Sequence record: OZ336096.1
From: a phage
Length of the DNA stretch: 64,000 bases
Strand: one strand, 5' to 3'
The translations under genes and the position numbers were made by a program. The stretch's first letter is position 1. Each line of letters opens with the position of its first letter. The notes below the pieces were generated by a model. That model was not told where the DNA came from and made no database searches. It saw only the letters and a list, made by a program, of their open reading frames with translations. This document shows, piece by piece, positions 2,507-63,593 of the stretch.

Positions 2507-2836
2507 TTAATCTGCCAACCTTAAATTGAAATTAACACCAAATTTTTCACATACTTCCAACATATACTCAAGGGAGACGTTACCAGTGAGATGGATTATG
2601 TTGGATACACGAGCCTGAGAGATACCACAAATTTTAGCGACTTGCTCTTGAGAAAGACCTCTGGATTTAATCTCTCTCTTAAAACGATGTGCAACGAAAT
2701 CTCTCATTTCGTCTACATCCATTGGACAGATGTAATTTTCCATTTCAGCCTCTCTATCAGCCTCCCAATCATCTTGTGGAGCATAAGGGTCAAAAACCTC
2801 ATTCATCTTTCTTCTTCCGTTTGCGTGAAGCATCAA
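2507..2836 (-). CDS. XRE-family helix-turn-helix DNA-binding protein
   Basis: 109 aa; LSQEQVAKICGISQARVSNI resembles an XRE HTH. Confidence 0.6.
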   Translation of the reverse strand: MMLHANGRRKMNEVFDPYAPQDDWEADREAEMENYICPMDVDEMRDFVAHRFKREIKSRGLSQEQVAKICGISQARVSNIIHLTGNVSLEYMLEVCEKFGVNFNLRLAD

Positions 2837-3011
2837 TCAATGAATCTATGTTTGTAGCTCTAACCTTTTCACGTTCATCGTTAAGATAATCATCAAGAGC
2901 CTTTTCAATCTGTGAATCATCTTGACAGATAACTGTAAAGACTGTAAAGCCGTCTGTATCGTCAATTATCTTACCATAACCGCTTCTGGGATGTAACTTT
3001 TTAAGAGCCAT
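2799..3011 (-). CDS. hypothetical protein
   Basis: 70 aa ORF; overlaps the upstream end of the HTH gene by ~38 nt. Confidence 0.3.
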   Translation of the reverse strand: MALKKLHPRSGYGKIIDDTDGFTVFTVICQDDSQIEKALDDYLNDEREKVRATNIDSLIDASRKRKKKDE

Positions 3012-3012
3012 A

Positions 3013-3396
3013 TTAGATACCTGTACAGCTTCTGTTTTCTAAGAAATACTCAACACCATACATAGCTTTTTGCATCAAATCTTCTTTAAACTGGATACGA
3101 TGATTGAGCATAGCCTGTACATCAATATCATCATGGTGTTTCTCTTTAATATTTGCAGATTGCAGGAAATACTCTGCAAGAACACGATATTGATAGTCAG
3201 TAACCTTATCAGTCATCTCTGTTAAAGACTCTTCAGAGATTGGTTTAAGTAACTCACCATTAGCCAGAGCAACACCTTTTACAATCTGGCAAGTGTCTTC
3301 TGGAACACCTGATAAGTCCACATTTGGAAGTTCTGTTGCATTGACTGGTAAATTCATTGCCATAACCATTGCAGCAGCTAATAAAATCTTTTTCAT
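3013..3396 (-). CDS. secreted/periplasmic protein (hypothetical)
   Basis: 127 aa; N-terminal signal-peptide-like MKKILLAAAMVMAMNLPVNA. Confidence 0.5.
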   Translation of the reverse strand: MKKILLAAAMVMAMNLPVNATELPNVDLSGVPEDTCQIVKGVALANGELLKPISEESLTEMTDKVTDYQYRVLAEYFLQSANIKEKHHDDIDVQAMLNHRIQFKEDLMQKAMYGVEYFLENRSCTGI

Positions 3397-3829
3397 AATG
3401 ACCTCAAAGTTATATTAAATTTTGTATTACATTGAGTATAAAAATAAGCTATAACACCTGACTTGTCAACAGATTTTATAGCTTATTTGGCAGATTTTTT
3501 ATAAGGCTACTGCCATCCTTCCATACCAGACTACACCATGCCAGACCAGACTTCACATCACCCTACCGTGCAATACATTACTTAAAAAACCTCTTAGAAA
3601 GACTCTTAAGTGATGCTGGTGAGTACCCGTTGGTTTATGCTGCTCAGTATACTCACCAAATTTTCTATGTCAACAACTTTTATATAAAAGTCCTGATAGC
3701 TATATGTGTTACAAAACAGAAGATTGTGAACAAAACACCCATTGCAAAAGATGTGTCCAAAAGCTTACTTGCAATGTATGACAATACAAAGACAACCAGT
3801 ATAAACAGAATGACTGTACTGAACATAGT

Positions 3830-5803: not shown

Positions 5804-6337
5804 TCAACTTAGTTTTGCAAACTCTCCGTGGAGTTTAATAGCAGCTTCACAGTAAGCTTTATGGGCTTCTTCAGGGGTGTCATGGTGACCTAAAAACATC
5901 TTCTTACCTTTATAACTTATCTGTGCGACCCACTTACCAGACTTCTTCTTAAGACTTACACCCTTGTACCCAGATTTATTGGTGACTGGTTTACCTTTAT
6001 TCCAAGCACTTTGAAAATCATCTGCTTCCCTTAAGTTTACAATCCTGTTGTCAAGCGAGTCTCCGTTGATATGGTCAATGATACCTTTTGGCATCTTGCC
6101 ATACACGTAAAGCCATGCGAGTCTGTGTGCTTTATGTGCTTTCTTGTCAAAATAGATACTAATCTGTTTATGACCACTTGAATCAGTCTGGATATTACCT
6201 GCCACCTTTCCTGCATAATTACTGTTAAAAACACTAACAGCTCTTGATTTACCTTCTCTACGAAGCCAAGTAAAGACCCCTGTTTCGGGGTCATAGTGCA
6301 GCAGCTCCTTTAAACGTTTTTGTAAAATTAAGTCCAT
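5804..6337 (-). CDS. HNH homing endonuclease with AP2-like DNA-binding domain
   Basis: 177 aa; HNH motif IIDHINGDSLDNRIVNLR; C-terminal AP2-like SGYKGVSL..GKWVAQISYKGKK..LGHHDTPEEAHKAY; lies immediately downstream of the split polymerase gene. Confidence 0.75.
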   Translation of the reverse strand: MDLILQKRLKELLHYDPETGVFTWLRREGKSRAVSVFNSNYAGKVAGNIQTDSSGHKQISIYFDKKAHKAHRLAWLYVYGKMPKGIIDHINGDSLDNRIVNLREADDFQSAWNKGKPVTNKSGYKGVSLKKKSGKWVAQISYKGKKMFLGHHDTPEEAHKAYCEAAIKLHGEFAKLS

Positions 6338-6340
6338 TAA

Positions 6341-6895
6341 TCAATGTACCTCATACCAGCTCTTACCAACCTTTGCTGTACCAGTTACAAGTGTTTCTTT
6401 CCTCAAACCTAAGTTTTTTGAAGCTTGTCCATACATCCAGTCAGCAATTGCTTTCATATCCTGTGTCATACCCTCTGGACATTCCCAACTATTTTCATCG
6501 TGATATGCCAGAAGTAACCTTGCTCCGATAGCTGGTTTTCGAGCATTCAGTTTTGTCAGGCCATCTTCACAGGCTTTTCTTGCTGCTAGGTTGATGGCCT
6601 CATTCTGAATCTGTGCTTCCGAACTCATCAGGAGGTAGTTCAGTAGTTTATGTGGAGATTTGCACCATATCCATGCTCCAGCGACCCTGATATAACCACC
6701 TTTAGCAATTGAAGAATTCTTCCCAAAAACCTCTTCCAGAGCCTTTTTAGACGCCTTAAAATCGGCTTCTAAGCTATCAAGTAACTTCTTAATCTTTGGC
6801 AGACGCATATAGTAAGTTTGTTTAGTCAATGCACCTTCTTCCGTAGATGATGCTTTGATAGTTTTTGCAAACTTCTCGTCACCTGCACCGAACAA
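6341..6895 (-). CDS. DNA polymerase (family A), C-terminal exon/fragment
   Basis: Frame opens after a TGA as ..PDVLFGAGDEKFAKTIK (second half of motif B) and contains LLLAYHDENSWECPEG (motif C HDE). Confidence 0.7.
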   Translation of the reverse strand: MFGAGDEKFAKTIKASSTEEGALTKQTYYMRLPKIKKLLDSLEADFKASKKALEEVFGKNSSIAKGGYIRVAGAWIWCKSPHKLLNYLLMSSEAQIQNEAINLAARKACEDGLTKLNARKPAIGARLLLAYHDENSWECPEGMTQDMKAIADWMYGQASKNLGLRKETLVTGTAKVGKSWYEVH

Positions 6896-7160
6896 TACAT
6901 CTGGTCAATACACTCGCAAGGTGTACCAGTTCTCTTATGAACTTCTCCGCATTTCTACGGAGTGTCGGACTATATCACGTAGTAGTAATACTACCGTTGC
7001 ACTTGGGAATGGTCATTAGCTTACCACCCTACTCTACTCAGTTCATACATTAAGTATGCTTTTCGATAGTCTCTGAACGTTCCTCTTAAGAGGCTTCGCT
7101 GCTGATTACCATATCTTTTAAGACTTAGGCTTCCAGCAATTCACAACGTTTTACATGCGC
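6896..7160 (-). other. intervening sequence in DNA polymerase gene, putative small ORF-less group I intron (boundaries approximate)
   Basis: Upstream ORF stops at 7125 just after ..RKKSKNGIYAS (start of motif B); motif resumes at ~6898; RNA-sense sequence has GATATAGTCCGACACTCCGTAGAAATGCGGAG resembling the P9 region of the nrdD intron. Confidence 0.5.
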
Positions 7161-9308
7161 CACTGACGCATAGATGCCATTTTTGCTCTTCTTACGACCT
7201 TTTGTAATCTCGTGAAGAAGTTCCTCATCCTGTGTCTCCCTACAACGAACAATATCTTCTTCCTTGTTCAGACCAAAGTAAATACTGTTCAGTGTATGCG
7301 CATCAGTCCCTGTGTAGACTTCATAGAGGTCGTTCTCAGCATCATAACGAAGATACTTGTCAGTTTCTGGATTAAGATACTTATCGAGATGCTTGCAATA
7401 GTATCTTCCATCCTCTTGCTTAGTGAACTCTACTGACTCTTTACCCTCAGTTACTGCTTTAGTGAAGTCTTCATCACCCATAAAGTTACAAAGAAGAACT
7501 AGCTGGGCTGAGTTCTGGTCAACGGAAACGATGTTAGTCCCCTCCTCACAAATCCACACCTCCCTCATAGGTGCTCCATAGACAGCAGCACCAGACGGTA
7601 CGTTTACAATACCATATTGCGTCATACGTCCAGTTGAAGTACCAAACACCATTGCACCAGCACTAAGGCGACCATCTGGACGAATCTGGTTCAACCAACC
7701 TTTTTCATCATCCTTTGAGTTCTCAATAGTCCTGCGTCGGTGCATCAAAGTATAGTACTTAGCAATCTTCTGTCCAAGCTCACCTTCAATCGTATCATAA
7801 GATGATTCAGTAAGTTTTGGTGAAGTACGGATTAAGCAAGGCTCAAGCAAATCTGTGTACTTCTTCACAGACCAGTTATGTTCAATGTACTGGACACCTT
7901 CATGTTCAACATAACTCAAGCCGCACCGTTCAACCATCTCCTGCCACTTAGGATGCTTTGTAATCATCTTTTTGTTGTCTTTGAAACGACAAACTTTGAC
8001 AGGGCGACCATCTGAATCTTTCTTGTAGTTCCAGTCATCTGGAATCCAGCCAACTGATTTCAAGTAGTCTTTAACAACTGCTACTTGAGTCATACGAGAA
8101 ACTTCAAACTCAATTGGTGTATATGGTGCATCAATCAATCCTGTGTAGCGACTTGACTCCAGTCCAAAGTGGTTAACAACATGACTGTTATAGTACTTCA
8201 CAGTTTTAACTGTTTTTACTGGCTTCCAGTCTTTGCATTTCTTACCAATCTTTGCGTTCAACTCATTGCAAATTGCACGAGCATCCTTCATTGCTACAAA
8301 ACCCTCCTTGTACTCTTCACCAGTTACAGAGTTGGTTGGCGTATAGCAATTTCTCTTTTCAATGTTAAAAATCTTTGTAGTTGGCTTACCAAATGGTTTG
8401 ATTTCGTATGTCTGCATCTCACCGTTACGTACCTGCTGACGATACTTTGTCTTAGGGTACTTGGTAATCCTCTTCAGTCCATCTGCATGACCAAATGTTT
8501 CAACATACTCATTCCAAGCTTTTGCAAACTCTTCTCCAGTGACTTTACCTTTGGTCTTAATAGTTGGAGGAAGATGTGGTTCAACCTCTGAAGCAAGCTC
8601 ATTAGTCAACTTGTCAAGTTCCTTTACATGGAACTCCATAAGTTCTTTATCAGCTTTCCAACCATTGATAGCTTGTTGACTCATCCAGAAAGATGTTTCT
8701 TTAGCTCGCATGTAGGTTTCATAAGTGTCTATGCCACACTTCTTAAGCTTGAGATACTCATTATCAAGTGCCCGTTTAGTTTTGGCGTTAATACGGATAT
8801 CTTCTACAACACGAGTGAAGATTTCTGCATTCCACACACCCCAATGTTCAATCTCTGGTTTACGAACACCAACACGAGCACCCCATGCAGCCAAACCATG
8901 AGCACCTTTATAACCCTTTGGAGTTGGTCTATCCATCCACTGAACACGAGACTGGATAAGAGAATCCTGAAAGAAGTTACTCCACGGTTTACACTTTGGA
9001 TTATCAAAGTTCCATAAATCAGGTGCAATGTGGTTGAAAACCCACCAGTCATAACCGAGACCATTATGGATGCAAAGACGTTTTGCCTTTAACGCAAACT
9101 CAACACCTTCACGCAAACCACCCTTAATGTACTTGGTATACTTGTGACCGAGGATAGGCTCGTCTGTAAAGACCCATACAGGTGGCTCTTCATCGTCAGA
9201 TTTATAGTCTGCAAAGGCCATTACGTGAACTTTAGTGAACTCAAGGAGTAAACCATCAGTTTCTGTATCACCAACCAAATGTAAGTTTTTAAAATCTACG
9301 TTTTCCAT
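7125..9308 (-). CDS. DNA polymerase (family A) with 3'-5' exonuclease, N-terminal exon/fragment
   Basis: Exo I motif LVGDTETDGLL; motif A VSVDQNSAQLVLL; GTDAHTLNSIYFG; start chosen at MENVDF (9308) with GAGGGA RBS; ORF track gives 7125-9338. Confidence 0.8.
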   Translation of the reverse strand: MENVDFKNLHLVGDTETDGLLLEFTKVHVMAFADYKSDDEEPPVWVFTDEPILGHKYTKYIKGGLREGVEFALKAKRLCIHNGLGYDWWVFNHIAPDLWNFDNPKCKPWSNFFQDSLIQSRVQWMDRPTPKGYKGAHGLAAWGARVGVRKPEIEHWGVWNAEIFTRVVEDIRINAKTKRALDNEYLKLKKCGIDTYETYMRAKETSFWMSQQAINGWKADKELMEFHVKELDKLTNELASEVEPHLPPTIKTKGKVTGEEFAKAWNEYVETFGHADGLKRITKYPKTKYRQQVRNGEMQTYEIKPFGKPTTKIFNIEKRNCYTPTNSVTGEEYKEGFVAMKDARAICNELNAKIGKKCKDWKPVKTVKTVKYYNSHVVNHFGLESSRYTGLIDAPYTPIEFEVSRMTQVAVVKDYLKSVGWIPDDWNYKKDSDGRPVKVCRFKDNKKMITKHPKWQEMVERCGLSYVEHEGVQYIEHNWSVKKYTDLLEPCLIRTSPKLTESSYDTIEGELGQKIAKYYTLMHRRRTIENSKDDEKGWLNQIRPDGRLSAGAMVFGTSTGRMTQYGIVNVPSGAAVYGAPMREVWICEEGTNIVSVDQNSAQLVLLCNFMGDEDFTKAVTEGKESVEFTKQEDGRYYCKHLDKYLNPETDKYLRYDAENDLYEVYTGTDAHTLNSIYFGLNKEEDIVRCRETQDEELLHEITKGRKKSKNGIYASVAHVKRCELLEA

Positions 9309-9565
9309 TTTTACTCCCTCTAAAATCATTAACCACATACATTACTGCAAAAAATTATAAAAAGCAAGTTGACAATACACTTGACAAGGTGTTAATCTTT
9401 GCGAAGTGGGTTTTTACTTAAAAGGTTACTTAACAGTTTAACTATACAGATACTTTAAAACTCTTAAAAGATTATTTAATAGCTTTTAAAAAGCTTTAAA
9501 GTATAACGTATAGAATACGTTAAGATAAAAGATTAAAACTTAATAGTTACTTAAAAGAGGCTTAC

Positions 9566-22490: not shown

Positions 22491-23687
22491 ATGAACAAAG
22501 TACAAATTATTAAAAAGAATGGCTCACTTGAAGAACCGGATATCAAAAAAGTTTTAGTAGCAGTCACAAAGTCAGCTAACAGGGTTGGTTATAAAGAGCT
22601 TCCACCAGATGTTACTCAAGCCCTTGAGTCAGCATTTATGAGGATTCTGGTAAAATCTACTAAGCAGAATAATTTACTCGTTTCAGTAAATGATATTCAC
22701 AGTATTGTTGAAGGTGCTTTGGCAGAGGTCAATCACGAGATTTATGAGTCTTACTCAACATACAGAAATTACCGTAAAGAGGTTGCTCAAAATTGGGACG
22801 AACTCTACCAGAAGACTAAAGATACACTCTTCTTAGGTGACCGTGAAAATGCTAACTTTGACAGCAGTTTAATTTCTACGAAAGGTTCAATTATCCGTGG
22901 TTACCTGACTAAAGAAATCTTTAAACAGTATCATCTAACACCAGAGGAACTTGAAGCCATTGAGAAAGGCTTTATCTATATCCACGATTTGAGAGACCTG
23001 ATTTTTGGTGGTATTAACTGTTGCCTGTTTGACATTGGTAAAGTACTAAAAGGTGGCTTTGAAATGTCCGGCATTGAGTACTGTGAACCTAAATCTGTAC
23101 TGTCAGCGTTGCAGGTTATCGGTGACGTAGTACTTTCAGCAACTGCACAGCAATTTGGTGGATTTACTTTAGCAGAGATTGATAAGGTACTTGTACCGTA
23201 TGCTAAGAAGTCTCTACGCTATCATGCTGAGAAAGCAGCATCTTACGGTATTCCTAAAGAACATTACCATAATTATGTCATGGAGCAGCTACAGATTGAA
23301 TTAACTCAAGGTTTCCAGTCACTAGAGATGAAGCTAAATACTGTACCTTGTAGCCGTGGTGATTTCGCATTCACAACTTTAACATTTGGTTTACTTGACT
23401 CAGACATGTCTAATGAAGACAACCGACTACAATACATGATTGCAAACACCATTCTTGATGTTCGCATGAATGGACAAGGTAAGAGCAAGAAGCCTGTTGT
23501 ATTCCCTAAACTGGTTTATATTCATGACCAGAAGAGACACGATGAGAATATCTGTCAAGGTCAACTGTACAGTAAAGCTATTGAGTGTTGCTCTAAAGCT
23601 ATGTATCCAGATTTCTTAAGTGTATCTGGTCATGGTGCTGTAGCAGAGGCTTTTGAGCGTTCTGGCAAGGTAATTTCACCGATGGGT
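22491..23687 (+). CDS. nrdD: anaerobic ribonucleoside-triphosphate reductase, exon 1
   Basis: N-terminal ATP-cone; ORF ends ..VISPMG followed by in-frame TAA that I interpret as the first codon of the intron. Confidence 0.8.
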
Positions 23688-24003
23688 TAACAGGCTCTAT
23701 AGCTCATCTAAAACGTGCCTAAACAGGGAAACTCTACAGATGTAGACAATCCTGTGCTAAATGATGTACGATGTAAGAAACTATACAACATAGGAGTCTT
23801 ACATGCCAAATAACTTCGAATATGAGTTTGAATACATCTAAATGCCGAACGACTAACCGTGATGAATGTAGCGGTGTAGGGTCAAGCGACTCGAAATGGT
23901 ACGCTACTTAGAAATAAGTAGAAGATATAGTCTGGACTTACTGGCGACAGTAAGCAGCTTGAATAAAGCGGGGTAAGCTTAGCGAACTTACCTGAACAAC
24001 AAG
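23688..24003 (+). other. group I intron (ORF-less) interrupting nrdD
   Basis: 316 nt between exons; exon 1 ends in T, intron ends in G; contains GACAATCCTGTGCTAAAT, GGGTCAAGCGACTCGAAATGG, AGATATAGTCTGG, GGGGTAAG..CCTGAACAACAAG, which closely resemble core elements of the T4 td/nrdD introns as I remember them. Confidence 0.75.
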
Positions 24004-24951
24004 TGTAGAGCGTTTTTATCACCATACCATAACGAATATGGTGAAGAGTTTTATGTAGGTCGTGCTAATATTGGTGCTGTATCTTTGAACTTACCAATGA
24101 TTTACCAGTATTCTAAAGAGAATGGTTTAGATTTCTGGAAAGAGCTTGATAAGTACCTAGAGATGATTCGCAGCTTCCACAAGAAACGCTACGAAATGAT
24201 TGCTAATATGCCAGCAAGTTCTAACCCTCTTGCATTTACACAAGGTGGTCTGTACAAAGGGACTAAGAAACCTACTGATAAGGTTGGCTGGGATATTGTG
24301 AAGTCCTTCACAGCTTCTTTTGGGGTTACTGCACTAGACGAGCTATCTGTTCTTGCTGAAGGTAAGCGACTTCATGAAGTTGGAAGCTGTAGTTTTGCAT
24401 ATGATGTTCTGGAATATATCAACATAAAGACTGAAGAGTTTAAAAATGAAGATGGTTTCTTATATGCAGTCTATGGCACTCCAGCAGAATCACTTTGTGG
24501 AACTCAGCTAAAACAGTTCAGAGATATGTTTGGCGTTATCAAAGGTGTTTCTGATAAAGAATACTTTACAAATAGTTTCCATATGAATGTTGCAGCAGAC
24601 ATTACACCATTTGAGAAGCAGGACTTAGAAGAACCTTTCTTCCATATCTGTAGAGGTGGCAGAATCCAGTATGTAAGGGTAGCTAACCCAGAAAACTTAC
24701 CAGCACTTAAAAGTTGTATTACAAGAGGGATGTTGAAAGGTTTCTATCAGGGACTTAACTTTGACTTAGCAATCTGTGAACATTGTGGTAACAGACCAAA
24801 GGCTGATGTTGAAGAATGTGAGGTTTGCCATTCACACGATATCTCTGTGATTAACAGGGTGTGTGGGTACTTGTCATTCACAAAAATTAAAGGTCAGTCT
24901 CGAATGAATGACGCTAAGATGGCAGAAATTAAGGATAGGGTTTCTATGTAA
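24004..24951 (+). CDS. nrdD: anaerobic ribonucleoside-triphosphate reductase, exon 2
   Basis: Frame open from 23998; CRAFLSPY..FYVGRANIGAVSLNLP; C-terminal Zn site CEHCGN..CEVCHSHD and glycyl-radical motif RVCGYL. Confidence 0.8.
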   Translation, partial: CRAFLSPYHNEYGEEFYVGRANIGAVSLNLPMIYQYSKENGLDFWKELDKYLEMIRSFHKKRYEMIANMPASSNPLAFTQGGLYKGTKKPTDKVGWDIVKSFTASFGVTALDELSVLAEGKRLHEVGSCSFAYDVLEYINIKTEEFKNEDGFLYAVYGTPAESLCGTQLKQFRDMFGVIKGVSDKEYFTNSFHMNVAADITPFEKQDLEEPFFHICRGGRIQYVRVANPENLPALKSCITRGMLKGFYQGLNFDLAICEHCGNRPKADVEECEVCHSHDISVINRVCGYLSFTKIKGQSRMNDAKMAEIKDRVSM

Positions 24952-58487: not shown

Positions 58488-58605
58488 GTTCTACATAGAA
58501 ACGAAACGAGAGCTTTTCTAAGATACTGAAAAATATTTTAAAAAAGTTCTTGACAATCACTAAAAAATAATGTTAAAGTGGTTACATAGAGTTTGAAAAG
58601 TTTAT

Positions 58606-58682
58606 CTCTGTTTAGCTCAGCTTGGTAGAGCGTTCCGTTTGGGGCGGTAAGGCCGGAGGTTCAAGTCCTCCAACAGAGACCA
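58606..58682 (+). tRNA. tRNA-Pro (anticodon UGG)
   Basis: 7 bp acceptor CTCTGTT/AACAGAG, D-arm TAGCTCAGCTTGGTAGAGC, T-loop GGTTCAAGTCC, CCA encoded; hand-folded. Confidence 0.6.
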
Positions 58683-58689
58683 AATTAAT

Positions 58690-58767
58690 GTTCCAGTAGA
58701 CAAAACGGTAAAGTCACCACTCTTTCAAAGTGGATATTTGAGGGTTCAAATCCCTTCTGGAACGCCA
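58690..58767 (+). tRNA. tRNA-Glu (UUC)
   Basis: Acceptor GTTCCAG/CTGGAAC, anticodon loop CTTTCAA, T-loop GGTTCAAATCC. Confidence 0.7.
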
Positions 58768-58858
58768 GTTTTGACAGAAGACCAATTGCAGCAAACTTAA
58801 TCTTATTCATCTGACACGAAATCGGACAAAGAAGAGATTTGGTCTGGTCATTAAGAAT

Positions 58859-58935
58859 TGCGGGTATAGAGAAAGGGCGTCTCACATGTCTCATTAGCAT
58901 GGTATCGGCAGGTTCGACTCCTGCACCCGCCTCCA
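58859..58935 (+). tRNA. tRNA-Met (CAU)
   Basis: Anticodon stem CATGT/GCATG, loop CTCATTA, T-loop GGTTCGACTCC; 1-72 mismatch. Confidence 0.55.
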
Positions 58936-59012
58936 ATTTTGCAGAAGACCGTATTCAGCAACAAAATACTTTTTGCGGATAAAAGAAAAAACACGGTCTG
59001 GCAATGTATTAA

Positions 59013-59089
59013 GGTTAGGAAGCACATAAGGTATGTGCGGTCGCCTGTTAAGCGAATGGCACAGGGTTCGAATCCCTGACTAACCGCCA
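59013..59089 (+). tRNA. tRNA-Asn (GUU)
   Basis: Acceptor GGTTAGG, loop CTGTTAA, T-loop GGTTCGAATCC. Confidence 0.65.
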
Positions 59090-59098
59090 AATTTAAAT

Positions 59099-59186
59099 GT
59101 GTCGTTATCCCGTAGATGGTAGCGGTGGGGACTGTAAATCCCTTGTCATTGAGACTCGGTAGGTTCGACTCCTACACGGCACACCA
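59099..59186 (+). tRNA. tRNA-Tyr (GUA), long variable arm
   Basis: Acceptor GTGTCGT/ACGGCAC, loop CTGTAAA, long variable arm, T-loop GGTTCGACTCC. Confidence 0.65.
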
Positions 59187-59192
59187 AATAAA

Positions 59193-59270
59193 GGTTATGT
59201 AGTTTAATCTGGTTAAAATACTCCCCTGTCACGGGAGATGATGAGGGTTCAAATCCCTTCGTAACCGCCA
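59193..59270 (+). tRNA. tRNA-Asp (GUC)
   Basis: Acceptor GGTTATG/CGTAACC, AC stem CTCCC/GGGAG, loop CTGTCAC. Confidence 0.7.
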
Positions 59271-59493
59271 AATTATAATAAGTATTTCAAGATGATGTTT
59301 TGAGAGGGCTATTTAGCCCCTCCCTTAAAGAGTTCTTACGAGTATTCTTTAAAGGAGCAGAAGACCAAATTCAGCAAGTACGTATGATATTTTCAAGCCA
59401 ATTTAATTTTGAAAAATTTAAAACTTGGTCTGGCTCAACAGATTTACAGAAGACCGTTTACAGCAAAACTTAAACAATCTATTTCTCCGGTAA

Positions 59494-59556
59494 AGAAAAG
59501 GCGAAGGTTCGATTCCTTCACTCGGCAGATGTCGAGTTGGTGTAATGGTAGCACTT
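59494..59556 (+). pseudogene. tRNA-like halves in permuted order (3' half then 5' half)
   Basis: GGCGAAGGTTCGATTCCTTCACTCGGCAG (T-arm + 3' acceptor) immediately followed by GTCGAGTTGGTGTAATGGTAGCAC (5' acceptor + D-arm); the two acceptor strands are complementary to each other. Confidence 0.35.
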
Positions 59557-59727
59557 AAGATGATAAACAACGGTCTGGTAATTATCTTTGTAGATAAGTT
59601 ATTAAGCTTACCTGTGAGTATGCGACCACAAAGGGTGAAAGGGTAAATTCTAGATTTAAACCCAACAAGGCACATCGCTACAGACCTTAAGCAAGTCTGG
59701 GTAGCTTATCTACAAAGATAATTTAAT

Positions 59728-59803
59728 GGAAGTGTAGCAGAATGGTGATGCGGCAGACTTTTAATCTGACAGGCGATGGGTTCGAATCCCTCCACTTCTA
59801 CCA
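59728..59803 (+). tRNA. tRNA-Lys (UUU)
   Basis: Acceptor GGAAGTG/CACTTCT, loop CTTTTAA, T-loop GGTTCGAATCC. Confidence 0.6.
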
Positions 59804-59807
59804 ATAT

Positions 59808-59884
59808 GGTTCAGTCGCAGATAAGGTAATGCAGGGGTCTCATAAGCCCTATGAATGTGGGTTCGATTCCCATCTGAACCTCCA
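59808..59884 (+). tRNA. tRNA with CAU anticodon (Met or lysidine-Ile)
   Basis: Acceptor GGTTCAG/CTGAACC, loop CTCATAA, T-loop GGTTCGATTCC. Confidence 0.6.
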
Positions 59885-59885
59885 A

Positions 59886-59961
59886 GCTGGTATAGTTAAG
59901 AAGGTTATAACACTCCCCTGATAAGGGAACATCGGTGGTTCGATTCCACCTACCAGTACCA
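59886..59961 (+). tRNA. tRNA-Ile (GAU)
   Basis: Acceptor GCTGGTA/TACCAGT, loop CTGATAA, T-loop GGTTCGATTCC. Confidence 0.65.
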
Positions 59962-60298
59962 ATTTCAATAAAGTTGTTGACATTGAGATGTGACCACTTT
60001 TTAGTAACTAAAATACTTCATAATATGTATAATTCAAACACCAATACATGAGCGTTAGACGTAACACAATGTGGGGAAATTTGTTGTACATATTCTGAAT
60101 AGTTTTCGTTGCGTAGCGTCTATTTTGCAAATTTAAAATAAATGCAAACGACAATGTTTTTCTGGCAGTAGCTTGATAGGCTAAACACCAGTGAGGTCTT
60201 CCAATCCCTCATCAAAGAATTTGGCGTACTAGCCCACGGTATGATTAATAAAGTGGGCATCTTTAAGGGCTTTCTAAGAGAGTCTTTAAAGATAATTA

Positions 60299-60380
60299 CG
60301 GGGCGTATCTCAGCTGTCTTCTAAACAGCCGTTAACCGAGTAAGTGGAGTATGCGGGTTCGAGTCCTGCCGCCTCGACCA
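60299..60380 (+). tRNA. atypical tRNA-like gene, possibly tRNA-Arg (UCU)
   Basis: Acceptor CGGGGCG/CGCCTCG + ACCA, T-loop GGTTCGAGTCC, perfect anticodon hairpin GCTGT-CTTCTAA-ACAGC, but no recognisable D-arm and a long segment after the anticodon arm. Confidence 0.35.
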
Positions 60381-60523
60381 ATTTAGTTAGCAGATTACTT
60401 AGACGACCTAAGCGGGTCTTCCTGTAGGGAGGTGGTCTGTATCTCATGTTTTCCAGAACATGTAAATAATCTGAGAAGAAGCTTGACAGTGTTGAGATAA
60501 TACGGTAAGCTTCGAATTATAGT

Positions 60524-60606
60524 ATGGGACGATGTTAAGACTCTAAGGCATGAGCAACGGCTTCCAACACCGTTTCAAAGGGGTTCAACTCCTCCGTCCC
60601 ATGCCA
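60524..60606 (+). tRNA. atypical tRNA-like gene, possibly tRNA-Trp (CCA)
   Basis: Acceptor ATGGGAC/GTCCCAT + GCCA, T-loop GGTTCAACTCC; anticodon region AACGG-CTTCCAACA-CCGTT allows a 7 nt loop (CCA) or a 9 nt loop; extra nucleotides in the D region. Confidence 0.4.
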
Positions 60607-60619
60607 AAGTCTTATTAGG

Positions 60620-60709
60620 GGTAGGTAGCGGCTAATGGTAGCCAAACTGTCTTGAAAACAGTTGCCACTGTAGAGATACGGTGAGGGTTCGACTCCTTTA
60701 CTTACCGCC
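60620..60709 (+). tRNA. tRNA-Ser (UGA), long variable arm
   Basis: AC stem ACTGT/ACAGT, loop CTTGAAA, long variable arm, T-loop GGTTCGACTCC; 3' end GCC (CCA not fully encoded). Confidence 0.65.
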
Positions 60710-60862
60710 TAATAAGATTTAAAGCCAAGCTTCATTCGGATGTTGCTTTGGTATCCCTCGTGTTGTCGAACACACTAATAAAGCACCTAGTAGGTGTCAC
60801 GGAGAAGAGATAATATCAAGCTCTCCAAAGGTCCTAGTCACCGGATTAAACAAGACTATGCA

Positions 60863-60884
60863 AAGACCTTTTTAGGTCTTTTTA
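60863..60884 (+). terminator. intrinsic terminator
   Basis: AAGACCTTTTTAGGTCTT hairpin followed by TTT. Confidence 0.5.
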
Positions 60885-60962
60885 GAGGGCTTCTAAGGTT
60901 ATTGCAGCTTGTTGTGGAACCTTGTTGCTTAGGTTCTTAGAAGTTCTCTAAAAAGATTTAAT

Positions 60963-61040
60963 GGGAGATTGACGGTAATTGGTAAACCTACCATCCTTAG
61001 AAGTTGGTGTTTGAGGGTTCGAATCCCTTGTCTCCTACCA
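60963..61040 (+). tRNA. tRNA with UAG anticodon (Leu-type), short variable arm
   Basis: Acceptor GGGAGAT/GTCTCCT, loop CTTAGAA, T-loop GGTTCGAATCC, discriminator A. Confidence 0.5.
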
Positions 61041-61047
61041 AATTAAT

Positions 61048-61123
61048 GCAGGTGTAGCAAAATGGTTATGCGGCTGACTCTTAATCAGTAAGACGATGGG
61101 TTCAATTCCCTCCACCTGTACCA
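61048..61123 (+). tRNA. tRNA-Lys (CUU)
   Basis: Acceptor GCAGGTG/CACCTGT, loop CTCTTAA, T-loop GGTTCAATTCC. Confidence 0.6.
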
Positions 61124-61129
61124 AACATT

Positions 61130-61205
61130 GGGGATGTAGTTTACATGGTTAAAACATAAGTTTTGCAAACTTAAGTACAGGGTTCAATTCCCTGCTTCTC
61201 CACCA
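61130..61205 (+). tRNA. tRNA-Ala (UGC)
   Basis: AC stem TAAGT/ACTTA, loop TTTGCAA, T-loop GGTTCAATTCC. Confidence 0.65.
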
Positions 61206-61211
61206 ATTAGT

Positions 61212-61286
61212 GCATCCATAGTTTAAACGGGAAAATTACAGTCTTCCAAACTGAGGTTGAGGGTTCGATTCCCTCTGGATGCTCCA
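61212..61286 (+). tRNA. tRNA-Gly (UCC)
   Basis: Perfect acceptor GCATCCA/TGGATGC, loop CTTCCAA, T-loop GGTTCGATTCC. Confidence 0.7.
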
Positions 61287-61293
61287 AATTAAT

Positions 61294-61370
61294 GCTGCTT
61301 TCGTATAATTGGCTATTACACATCCCTTGTAAGGATGGAAATGCAGGTTCGAGTCCTGTGAGCAGCACCA
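61294..61370 (+). tRNA. tRNA-Thr (UGU)
   Basis: Acceptor GCTGCTT/GAGCAGC, AC stem CATCC/GGATG, loop CTTGTAA, T-loop GGTTCGAGTCC. Confidence 0.75.
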
Positions 61371-61465
61371 ATTCAGAGGTCAAGTGAAAGACCGCTGGTG
61401 TCAACTGAAGACCGTAACAAATTCCACGGAGTTGAGTTAGCGGCACAACTTCAGACCTCTTCCAT

Positions 61466-61540
61466 ACTCGCTTAGTTTATATGGTAAAACATCACCCTTA
61501 CAAGATGAAGAAAAAGGTTCAAGTCCTTTAGTGAGTACCA
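61466..61540 (+). tRNA. tRNA-Val (UAC)
   Basis: Acceptor ACTCGCT/AGTGAGT, loop CTTACAA, T-loop GGTTCAAGTCC. Confidence 0.65.
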
Positions 61541-61541
61541 T

Positions 61542-61619
61542 GTTCCAGTATCCCAATTGGCAGAGGATGCAAGCTCAAACCTTGTACTAGTGACGGTTCG
61601 AATCCGTCTTGGAACACCA
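61542..61619 (+). tRNA. tRNA with CAA anticodon (Leu-type), short variable arm
   Basis: Acceptor GTTCCAG/TTGGAAC, AC stem GCAAG/CTTGT, loop CTCAAAC, T-loop GGTTCGAATCC, discriminator A. Confidence 0.5.
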
Positions 61620-61638
61620 ATTTTAAGAGGCTATTTAG

Positions 61639-62196
61639 ATGAGATATTTGAAGTATGCTTCATGGATTTTCCTAGCTTTACTAGAACCATTTGCAGCAAC
61701 CCTAGCAGTCATCTTAGCACCTTTCGTAGTTCCATTCTACAGTGAGAAGAAAGGACATCTACCTTTTGGATTCAGATGGATGGAGACCTATGACAACCCG
61801 ATTGATGGTGATGAAGGCCACGTTAAAAGATGGGCTAAGGTTAGAAAGATTGGTAAGCTGGGTGTCTACATGCAGAGAGTTGGATGGCTCTGGAGAAACA
61901 AAGCTTATAACTTCTCTTACCATGTATTAGGAAGAGATGTAAAAGATGTTACTAAGTGGAAAGGTAATATCAACGTAAGTTCTGACCCTGAAGATAATCA
62001 GACTGGTTATCTCCTAATGTGGAACAGTAATGCTTGGGGATTATTCGCTTTTATCCCATCAATTAAAGTCTTTGGTAAACAGTTTTACTGGAGAATTTAT
62101 ATTGGATGGAAACTAAAAAGTGTTGTCCCAGAAGAAAGAGCATTCTCAAGGGGAAGAGTTATGTTGGCATTCTTTATTCATCCACTGAGAAAGTAA
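61639..62196 (+). CDS. hypothetical membrane-anchored protein embedded in the tRNA cluster
   Basis: 185 aa ORF with AAGAGG RBS; N-terminal hydrophobic helix. Confidence 0.5.
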   Translation: MRYLKYASWIFLALLEPFAATLAVILAPFVVPFYSEKKGHLPFGFRWMETYDNPIDGDEGHVKRWAKVRKIGKLGVYMQRVGWLWRNKAYNFSYHVLGRDVKDVTKWKGNINVSSDPEDNQTGYLLMWNSNAWGLFAFIPSIKVFGKQFYWRIYIGWKLKSVVPEERAFSRGRVMLAFFIHPLRK

Positions 62197-62204
62197 AGAT
62201 TTAA

Positions 62205-62280
62205 AGGGGATTAGTTTACAAGGTTAAAACCTCGGTCTTTGAAATCGAAGAAGTTGGTTCAATTCCAACATCCCCCGCCA
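62205..62280 (+). tRNA. tRNA-Gln (UUG)
   Basis: D-stem GTTT/AAAC, AC stem TCGGT/ATCGA, loop CTTTGAA, T-loop GGTTCAATTCC. Confidence 0.6.
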
Positions 62281-62282
62281 AT

Positions 62283-62361
62283 GCTCCATTACTCCAATTG
62301 GCAGAGAGGCCAGACTTAAAATCTGTGTTATGTATCGGTTCGAATCCGATATGGAGTACCA
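62283..62361 (+). tRNA. tRNA with UAA anticodon (Leu-type), short variable arm
   Basis: Acceptor GCTCCAT/ATGGAGT, loop CTTAAAA, T-loop GGTTCGAATCC, discriminator A. Confidence 0.5.
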
Positions 62362-62366
62362 AATTT

Positions 62367-62442
62367 AGCGGTATAGCATAACTGGCAATGCAGCAGTCTC
62401 TGAAGCTGTCCTATTAAGGTTCAAATCCTTATGCCGCTGCCA
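62367..62442 (+). tRNA. tRNA-Gln (CUG)
   Basis: Acceptor AGCGGTA/TGCCGCT, loop CTCTGAA, T-loop GGTTCAAATCC. Confidence 0.6.
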
Positions 62443-62473
62443 CTTCTAAGGTTTCTTACGAGAGTCCTTAAAT

Positions 62474-62549
62474 GTGGCCTTATCATAAATGGTAATGACC
62501 CATGCTGTGAACATGGTCTATACGGGTTCAAATCCCGTAGGTCACCCCA
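62474..62549 (+). tRNA. tRNA-His (GUG)
   Basis: D-stem TCAT/ATGA, AC stem CCATG/CATGG, loop CTGTGAA, T-loop GGTTCAAATCC. Confidence 0.75.
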
Positions 62550-62555
62550 ATTTAT

Positions 62556-62631
62556 AGTCCAAGTGGCTTATATGGTTAAAGCGCGTGTCTGAAAAACATG
62601 AGAAGAGGGTTCAAATCCCACTGGACTACCA
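62556..62631 (+). tRNA. tRNA-Phe (GAA)
   Basis: Acceptor TAGTCCA/TGGACTA, loop CTGAAAA, T-loop GGTTCAAATCC. Confidence 0.6.
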
Positions 62632-62647
62632 ATTTCAAAGGTGCTTA

Positions 62648-63382
62648 ATGAAAGAGATGACAGAACAAGGTAAGGAGATTTTTAATCTCTTAAAAACCGG
62701 TAAAGGGTTTTCTAATCCCCTTATTACTGGTGCAGCAGTTCTAGGTGGAACCGTGGCTGCCTCTACATCACTTGTAAGCTCTATTAGCTCTGTAACAGAC
62801 CCTACAATGAAGGATAAACTTGTTGCTGCTGGACTTACAACAGTCCTTCTAAACAGCTTTACAACAAGCCTGACAAGCACTACAGCAACTACTAAGACCC
62901 TAACAGACTATGGTCAAAAATCTATTGATGAGTTTTCATCACGTATGCAGGTAGCAAAGGGATACTCCAATGTTATGGGTGCAGCAGGAGAACAAGTTGG
63001 TTGTACACCATTCAGTGGTATTATGGGTGTTGCTACAGAGTATGGTCAAAAAGCTATTGACATGATGAACAGTACACTAGATAGTGTTAATGGTGTGTTA
63101 AGTGACTTACAGGACGCTATTGACAAGGGTCTTGATACTGTTTCTGATTTAGCTAACCAAGCTGTCAGTAAGATTAATGAAGGTATCTCAAAGATTACAG
63201 CTTATGCAGATGAAGTTGTGCAGATGATTGAAGAAGAGGCTGCCCTTATTGCAGAGTACCTTAAAACGAATATCAATGGGTTCTTAGCAGGTATCTTACC
63301 AGACTGGTTTGATGATGCTTGTAAAACTGGTGTAATTGACACTATTGCAACACCAGAAATGAAGAACGCATTACAGAAATAA
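62648..63382 (+). CDS. hypothetical Ser/Thr-rich protein embedded in the tRNA cluster
   Basis: ORF 62585-63382 trimmed to ATG 62648 so it no longer overlaps tRNA-Phe; hydrophobic segment ITGAAVLGGTVAAS; stop abuts tRNA-Ser. Confidence 0.45.
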   Translation: MKEMTEQGKEIFNLLKTGKGFSNPLITGAAVLGGTVAASTSLVSSISSVTDPTMKDKLVAAGLTTVLLNSFTTSLTSTTATTKTLTDYGQKSIDEFSSRMQVAKGYSNVMGAAGEQVGCTPFSGIMGVATEYGQKAIDMMNSTLDSVNGVLSDLQDAIDKGLDTVSDLANQAVSKINEGISKITAYADEVVQMIEEEAALIAEYLKTNINGFLAGILPDWFDDACKTGVIDTIATPEMKNALQK

Positions 63383-63383
63383 T

Positions 63384-63476
63384 GGAAGATTAACCCTAAA
63401 AGGTAAGGGAGCAGTTTGCTAAACTGCCAGTAGCTGAGAAATCGGTGTACCAGTTCAAGTCTGGTATCTTCCTCCA
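63384..63476 (+). tRNA. tRNA-Ser (GCU), long variable arm
   Basis: Perfect acceptor GGAAGAT/ATCTTCC, AC stem GCAGT/ACTGC, loop TTGCTAA, long variable arm, T-loop AGTTCAAGTCT. Confidence 0.8.
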
Positions 63477-63480
63477 ATTT

Positions 63481-63555
63481 GAATCCGTGACAGAAATGGA
63501 TATGTGCCTGTCTGCAAAACAGGTTTATAAGGGTTCGAGTCCCTTCGGATTCTCC
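63481..63555 (+). tRNA. tRNA-Cys (GCA)
   Basis: Perfect acceptor GAATCCG/CGGATTC, AC stem CCTGT/ACAGG, loop CTGCAAA, T-loop GGTTCGAGTCC. Confidence 0.8.
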
Positions 63556-63593
63556 AAGTTATTTTACTCTCTCTCAATTAAAATAATAATAAT

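Follow-up and report, generated by a model that had tools for sequence, protein, structure and literature searches.

The closest described systems are the proven self-splicing introns of phage T4, in nrdD (sunY, I-TevII) and in the thymidylate synthase gene td (I-TevI), and the nrdE introns of phage Twort. As described in a survey of split phage ribonucleotide reductase genes (Landthaler et al. 2002, via PMC3653736), the Twort introns are likewise group I introns of a ribonucleotide reductase gene lying beside catalytically important conserved residues, and one of them encodes an HNH endonuclease; likened by this description, they differ from the locus analysed here in host gene (class Ib, nrdE) and in the Gram-positive host. 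A Felixounavirus nrdD intron is not among the cases listed in that survey. For Felix O1-like phages, the genome paper on Felix O1, the type phage of the group, reported introns to be absent (PMC3185647), homing endonucleases between or inserted into genes are the subject of general statements (PMC3728262), and a 'split nrdD interrupted by a homing endonuclease' has been mentioned without being termed an intron (PMC4837284). Our literature search found no paper describing a Felixounavirus nrdD intron, its splicing or its structure. Here we analyse an interrupted nrdD gene of this kind, for which the best and very probable explanation, as judged from sequence analysis, is a group I intron that has lost its HNH endonuclease gene by deletion and that lies between the Gly and catalytic Cys codons of a Felixounavirus nrdD.

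Interruption of the nrdD reading frame

The window (the whole 64,000-nt stretch of record OZ336096.1 that was analysed) comes from a Felix O1-like myovirus of the genus Felixounavirus, with an nrdD region 94-96% identical to those of many Escherichia and Salmonella Felixounaviruses and REP5 as the best match (96.1% identity). The first-pass annotation had placed nrdD in two ORFs 316 nt apart, the first ending in ...VISPMG with a final T before an in-frame TAA and the second resuming in frame at TGT AGA GCG, and the ORF coordinates, gap length and codon positions bear this out:

22491..23687, + strand: nrdD exon 1, 399 codons, with the ATP-cone and the N-terminal half of the NRDD domain, ending in ...VISPMG
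23688..24003, + strand: group I intron of subgroup IA2 (T4 sunY/td-like, without P2), supported by Rfam, covariation, the minimum free energy (MFE) fold and intron-less alleles
24004..24951, + strand: nrdD exon 2, 315 codons plus stop, with the glycyl-radical domain

The exon 1 ORF itself runs from 22491 to 23690, its last sense codon being GGT (Gly, 23685-23687) and its stop TAA (23688-23690), and exon 2 opens in frame at 24004 (CRAFLSPY...FYVGRANIGAVSLNLP). The Pfam profiles are divided accordingly, with the ATP-cone and NRDD positions 1-250 in exon 1 and NRDD positions 264-560 and Gly_radical in exon 2. When 23687 is joined to 24004 in silico, the junction reads ...ATGGGT/TGTAGAGC... (protein ...VISPMG/CRAFLSPY...) and the result is a 2145-nt CDS for a 714-aa NrdD with one stop, at its end. 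The uninterrupted nrdD of ZX4221 is also 2145 nt long, the intron-less Felixounavirus alleles (ZX4221, VpaE1, NBSal004, SeKF_63 and others) match the ligated exons without a gap, and a 224-nt segment spanning the in silico junction gives one ungapped alignment to many Felixounaviruses with uninterrupted nrdD. Such intron-less alleles in many members of the genus would fit the statement made for Felix O1, a statement that is not generalisable to the genus. Alignment of the joined NrdD with solved class III reductases is also gap-free over the junction (PDB 9d3x: ...APMGCRSFLQGW...).

The insertion point falls between the Gly and catalytic Cys codons, the equivalent of Gly289/Cys290 in T4. The first codon of exon 2, TGT, thus specifies the catalytic Cys (SPMG-C290-RSFL in T4 NrdD), and Cys290 is reported to bear the thiyl radical in T4 NrdD (Logan et al. 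1999; Andersson et al. 2001). In exon 2 the earliest in-frame start, the TTG at 24085, lies 27 codons beyond this Cys codon, with none at the Cys codon itself or before it, so that the catalytic Cys would be translatable only after splicing. Both exons are under strong purifying selection among intron-bearing alleles, as synonymous codon differences between the window and REP5 far outnumber non-synonymous ones in exon 1 (49 versus 7) and in exon 2 (31 versus 5); this mainly synonymous change argues that nrdD is expressed and hence spliced.

The two separate CDSs annotated in most GenBank records, and the precedent of the mobE-split NrdA of Aeromonas phage Aeh1 (as cited in PMC3653736), would agree with a truly split gene whose two ORFs are translated separately and whose fragments assemble without RNA splicing. 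We consider this highly improbable, since translation of exon 2 from the TTG would yield a product without the Cys and the tip of the finger loop, since what separates the two ORFs is a ribozyme with conservation and covariation and not a spacer (see below), and since the annotation of Meda, Bas63 and phi92 has a joined CDS. Translational bypassing was dismissed as well, given the 316-nt gap, the stops in all frames and the conserved ribozyme. Reading the interruption as an intron has a consequence for annotation: the records of Meda and BASEL Bas63 have a joined CDS that skips an HNH gene (the 742-nt form, see below), whereas the records with the 316-nt form give two separate proteins, and the 399-aa and ~284-aa 'NrdD' entries listed in most Felixounavirus records would become one spliced 714-aa enzyme. 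The 284-aa or similar fragment in these records is without the catalytic Cys.

Ribozyme core, splice sites and covariation

The 316-nt intron opens with the in-frame UAA, contains stop codons in all three frames and ends in the terminal G (omega-G), G24003, directly before exon 2, within a motif (GAACAnnnnG, at the intron end) that is kept in relatives. The first-pass annotation had called a group I intron from four blocks resembling the core of the T4 td and nrdD introns (GACAATCCTGTGCTAAAT, GGGTCAAGCGACTCGAAATGG, AGATATAGTCTGG and GGGGTAAG); all four are present in the intron, and the resemblance extends well past them. BLAST aligned the 3' half with the T4 td intron at 71% identity over 160 nt (E=1e-11), and identity to T4 td and T4 nrdD (sunY) is 66-70% over ~250 aligned positions, the whole core being homologous. 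At P7, J8/7 and the other invariant core positions, the sequence is that of the proven self-splicing T4 introns, and the core helices are all intact in the window copy, with zero mismatches.

A covariance-model scan, which the first-pass annotation had suggested as a check, gave a match to Rfam RF00028 at 52.7 bits (E=1.6e-10) when run on all 64 kb and at 54.5 bits (E=4.8e-13) when run locally, against a gathering threshold of 50 bits. The score lies only slightly above the threshold because the generic model does not accommodate well an intron with a 76-nt insert in P6 and without P2, and consequently puts its own P1/P2 into exon sequence; the relatives score higher (60.4 bits for a 292-nt sister allele, 70.6 bits for the intron at the same site in phi92). 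This marginal score is the one point that would speak for a chance resemblance of a spacer to group I core motifs, or for a sequencing or assembly artefact. Set against it are the E value over the whole window, the occurrence of the same sequence at an identity of at least 95% in 94 independent phage records, the covariation described below and the exact restoration of the exons, and we regard this explanation as already refuted and as having next to no probability. The homologies to the T4 introns were used to draw a secondary structure, with the following elements (all on the + strand):

23681..23687, + strand: P1 5' strand, the last seven exon nucleotides GAUGGGU, pairing with GCUCAUC at 23702-23708
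23694..23708, + strand: internal guide sequence, GCUCUAUA at 23694-23701 (P10 partner) followed by GCUCAUC at 23702-23708 (P1 partner)
23714-23719, + strand: P3 5' strand, drawn by homology, with covariation
23723-23728 with 23750-23755, + strand: P4, drawn by homology, with covariation
23733-23737 with 23742-23746, + strand: P5, drawn by homology
23756-23757 (5' strand) with 23844-23845 (3' strand), + strand: P6, drawn by homology
23763..23838, + strand: P6a stem and distal loop, GAUGUA at 23763-23768 with UACAUC at 23833-23838
23851-23855 with 23928-23932, + strand: P7, GACUA with UAGUC, invariant and the same as in the T4 introns
23856-23859 with 23872-23875, + strand: P7.1, supported by covariation
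23879-23883 with 23888-23892, + strand: P7.2, recovered in the MFE fold
23898-23903, + strand: P3 3' strand, GGUACG, supported by covariation
23904-23910 with 23915-23921, + strand: P8, with a GAAA loop and with J8/7 on its 3' side
23937-23943 with 23948-23954, + strand: P9, with a GCGA loop
23957-23960 with 23966-23969, + strand: P9.1, recovered in the MFE fold
23972-23977 with 23987-23992, + strand: P9.2, supported by covariation

At the 5' splice site, U23687 forms a wobble pair with G23702 within the 7-bp P1, and P10 consists of 8 bp between UGUAGAGC (24004-24011, exon 2) and GCUCUAUA (23694-23701), with no gap to P1 on the guide. The extra hairpins P7.1 (ACCG/CGGU) and P7.2 (GGGUC/GACUC), located between P7 and the P3 3' strand, assign the intron to subgroup IA2, and a spacer of only five bases (UAAAA) between P1 and P3 leaves no room for a P2, an absence shared with T4 sunY but not with td. 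The P6a stem is different in every related intron, yet perfectly paired, and its distal loop is the location of the HNH ORF in sister phages. Two other placements of P1 were rejected: the P1/P2 that Rfam aligned at 23573-23650, inside exon 1, gave way to 23681-23687 with 23702-23708, as the latter uses the true exon end, adjoins P10 and matches T4 sunY, and a td-like register of 4 bp, which pairs GGGU with the earlier GCUC (23694-23697), uses a segment that forms the 8-bp P10. Unconstrained folding of 23681-24013 yielded an MFE structure of -89.8 kcal/mol (z=-3.0) that recovers P10, P3, P4, P5, P6, P6a, P7.1, P7.2, P8, P9, P9.1 and P9.2; folding of this kind excludes the pseudoknotted P7, and also P1 because of its competition with P10.

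To assess covariation, we projected the window structure onto a MAFFT alignment of 13 introns and counted pairs. The set comprised the window intron and 12 relatives: seven from the same nrdD site (the Felixounavirus 292-nt allele, Vibrio phages 184E37.3a and 1.084.O, Vequintaviruses EPFV3 and A140, Phapecoctavirus nieznany, and phi92) together with those of T4 nrdD, T4 td, Mosigvirus TH58 nrdD and two Aeromonas phages, with ORF-bearing inserts trimmed by hand before alignment (distal to P6 or, for T4 nrdD and TH58, distal to P9.1). Standard pairs occupied 91.5% of 890 cells, compared to 35-42% when partners were slid by 1 to 3 columns, a comparison biased towards the projected structure, which was derived from this one member of the set, the window intron. 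Double-sided changes occurred in 43 of 71 pairs, and none of 500 shuffles reached any observed measure. P3 (double changes in 5 of 6 pairs), P4 (double changes seen) and P8 (6 of 7) were paired in 100% of cells, P7.1 (4 of 4) and P9 (double changes seen) in 98%, and P9.2 (6 of 6) and P1 (with G-C/C-G and G.U/G-C/A-U changes) in 91%, while P7 is invariant over the 13 introns and identical to that of the T4 introns, and thus carries no covariation information. The splice-site helices change in concert as well: in Vibrio phage 184E37.3a, P10 (UGCCGAUC/GAUUGGCA) is different at all positions and fully compensated, again with 8 bp contiguous with P1, and a P1 change in Aeromonas phage phiA047 is compensated as judged by eye (exon GGCU, guide GGUC). 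The group I call is therefore upheld by several lines that agree with one another, namely the RF00028 score, T4 homology, a P3-P9 core with covariation, the splice-site U.G pair and P10, the omega-G, and frame restoration as seen in the intron-less alleles.

With the steps taken from established group I chemistry, splicing would begin with pairing of the guide GCUCAUC to the last seven bases of exon 1 (GAUGGGU), presenting U23687 in the U.G wobble, and an exogenous guanosine bound in P7 would then attack the bond after U23687. The guide segment GCUCUAUA would next pair with the first eight bases of exon 2 to form P10 while G24003 enters the G site, and exon ligation would yield the mRNA for the 714-aa NrdD. 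The in-frame UAA, as first codon of the intron, would halt ribosomes at the splice site.

The window contains other features of note. A second RF00028 match (6945..7177, - strand, 64.5 bits, E=4.6e-14) lies between the ORFs 7125..9338 and 6341..6895 (both - strand), the latter matching Pfam DNA_pol_A weakly, in its C-terminal part (E=6.5e-6, under the gathering score), and the DNA polymerase gene thus also appears to be split by an ORF-less group I intron. Just downstream of the second polymerase exon, a 177-aa ORF (5804..6337, - strand) with HNH_3 (E=9e-15) and AP2 (E=1.4e-12) domains is likely a free-standing homing endonuclease beside the intron-containing polymerase gene. On the + strand, ~58600..63560 is densely packed with 22 tRNA genes, each scoring above the Rfam gathering threshold, as is typical of Felix O1-like phages.

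Allele states and the homing-endonuclease gene

The nrdD site occurs in four states among Felixounaviruses: without intron, with a 742-nt intron containing an HNH ORF, with the 316-nt intron of the window and with a 292-nt intron (RPN213). From BLAST summaries we estimate that ~94 of ~230 matching records are intron-bearing. The 742-nt allele (Meda, Bas63 and others) encodes a 154-aa HNH_3 ORF in the P6 loop (Pfam E=2.5e-10), and its difference in length from the window allele, 426 nt, equals 142 codons, so that an in-frame deletion gives the window allele. What is left of the gene in the window is short:

23792..23841, + strand: homing-endonuclease gene relic, Shine-Dalgarno AGGAG at 23792-23796 and an ATG with 12 codons (MPNNFEYEFEYI, then stop) at 23803-23841

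The deletion turns MPN/YHV...KEHN/NFEYEFEYI (Meda, followed by a stop) into MPNNFEYEFEYI and a stop, with the junction MPN/NFEYEFEYI; this junction was read from the ORF translations, as the MAFFT alignment of the 316-nt and 742-nt forms misplaced the large gap. The first-pass description of the intron as ORF-less holds in that 23688..24003 contains no + strand ORF of at least 40 aa and no intact homing-endonuclease gene, but has to be qualified by the relic and by the gene that sister phages keep. A 47-aa minus-strand ORF (23882..24025) overlaps P7.2 to P9.2 and was dismissed as spurious. In RPN213 the breakpoints are different, the ribosome-binding site and ATG having been removed, and the endonuclease was therefore lost at least twice.

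The flanking exons differ in how they are linked to the intron. All five intron-bearing alleles compared have a common 3'-exon haplotype, in which 9-11 of the first 55 nt of exon 2 differ from the four intron-less Felixounavirus alleles, whereas no intron-linked haplotype was found in the 5' flank of the same five and four alleles. The window and ZX4221, for example, are identical over 480 nt upstream of the junction and show 11 differences in the 60 nt that follow it. Linkage on one side only is the trace that co-conversion in endonuclease-driven homing would leave, and it predicts a nick site of the HNH enzyme in exon 2; the linked T at position +3 of exon 2 (TGT versus TGC) also completes P10. 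The population thus displays both presence/absence polymorphism and a linked flanking-exon haplotype, the signature of homing.

Loss of the homing-endonuclease gene is, in the established model of the homing-element life cycle, the stage that precedes intron decay, and phages cultured aerobically in the laboratory can do without nrdD, so that a copy unable to splice could survive for a while. Together with the Rfam score barely above threshold, the deleted endonuclease gene and the aerobically non-essential host gene could thus be read as a decaying, splicing-incompetent relic in which the ribozyme is also dead and nrdD is effectively a pseudogene. This is improbable in our judgement: the core helices of the window copy show no mismatches, its P7, J8/7 and invariant core bases are those of introns proven to self-splice, the 316-nt allele with an identical deletion junction is present in at least 25 deposited phages, and the selection on both exons described above speaks against a pseudogene. 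We infer self-splicing of the nrdD intron, as well as its past mobility, from sequence, structure, covariation and population patterns.

The history that best accommodates these data starts from a mobile 742-nt intron with an HNH_3 homing endonuclease in its P6 loop, from which the 426-nt in-frame deletion would have removed the enzyme. With the enzyme deleted, the window intron is unable to initiate homing by itself, yet it should have retained splicing and could be mobilised in trans upon co-infection with an endonuclease-bearing relative. The window element thus joins the phage IA2 group I introns as a new and well-supported member, and probably derives from a mobile HNH intron whose endonuclease gene was deleted. 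No new mechanism is revealed, and the element, found in dozens of deposited Felixounavirus genomes, will not surprise the specialist. Its interest lies in near-isogenic, easily grown phages among which every stage of the homing-element life cycle is represented, that is the empty site, the intron with HNH gene, two independent endonuclease deletions and the intron-linked haplotype attributable to co-conversion, making Felixounavirus nrdD a convenient natural system to measure homing, trans-homing and intron loss.

Relatives at the same site and in T4

The Gly/Cys site also houses homologous introns outside the genus, in no fewer than four further groups of phages; with two kinds of Vibrio phage counted apart, there are five such phages or groups (phi92, Vequintavirus, Phapecoctavirus and the two kinds of Vibrio phage). 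Those of phi92, EPFV3, nieznany and the Vibrio phages 184E37.3a, F97 and 1.084.O share the identical insertion point (..MG/CR[SA][FL]L), a homologous ribozyme (66-71% identical) and, where an ORF is present, a homologous HNH_3 ORF in P6. The phi92 intron is also ORF-less (279 nt), its gene product being annotated in GenBank as 'spliced variant' gp192A. These introns reside in other phage genera and differ from the window intron in that guide and P10 are fitted to the exons of each phage, and in that their ORF reads through P6/P7 (...EMPND and a stop) whereas the Felixounavirus ORF stops earlier.

Several records touching on these relatives deserve comment. In Vibrio phage F97 (OZ195764.1, 1..3700), the annotation divides nrdD into at least four pieces: a second insertion, containing a 309-aa 'HNH endonuclease', precedes the Cys-site intron, and exon 2 has another break (CDS 2644..3303 and 3304..3684). 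Multiple mobile elements may reside in this one gene. Records MG065664, MG065668 and MG065674 ('Campylobacter phage' A132, A126 and A140) and GU169904 ('Staphylococcus phage SA1') contain Felixounavirus- or Vequintavirus-type nrdD (identity 93-98% for A132, A126 and SA1; A140 is itself classified as Vequintavirus), and their host labels look wrong or the records contaminated. Related ORF-less IA2 introns also split the terminase large-subunit gene of Aeromonas phage 2L372D (2385..2627, Rfam 85 bits) and the phiKZ-like RNA polymerase beta-subunit gene of Pseudomonas phage HUST_1 (2363..2591, 84 bits); the same ribozyme lineage is spread over very different phages and genes.

Compared to the T4 td intron, the window intron has 66% core identity (with the 3' half detected by BLAST, see above), an identical exon end (...GGGU/UAA) and homology from P3 to P9.2 with many compensatory changes, and the td ORF also lies in the P6 loop. 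The td intron differs in having a P2 hairpin, thymidylate synthase as host gene, a GIY-YIG endonuclease and a P7.1 without the conserved 12-nt loop.

The T4 nrdD intron shares the host gene, an IA2 core with P7.1/P7.2 and no P2, ~70% core identity, the P7.1 loop UGAUGAAUGUA, the in-frame UAA at the intron start and the guide hexamer GCUCAU, which pairs there with a 5' exon hexamer (AUGAGU) one base apart from that of the window (AUGGGU). However, the T4 intron is inserted at codon ~180 (QAYE/YEVNT) and not at Gly/Cys, and has its GIY-YIG endonuclease in the P9.1 region (GenBank annotation), whereas the Cys-site family has HNH_3 in P6. The shared guide hexamer, P7.1 loop and lack of P2, along with the one-base difference between exon hexamers, suggest a possible ancient site switch. 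In a tentative and rather unlikely scenario, the Cys290-site intron and its HNH gene would form one lineage across at least five phage groups, sister to T4 sunY, which sits ~110 codons upstream in nrdD, and reverse splicing into a look-alike hexamer would have switched the site within the gene, with the two endonucleases (GIY-YIG in P9.1, HNH in P6) gained independently by the T4 and Cys-site introns.
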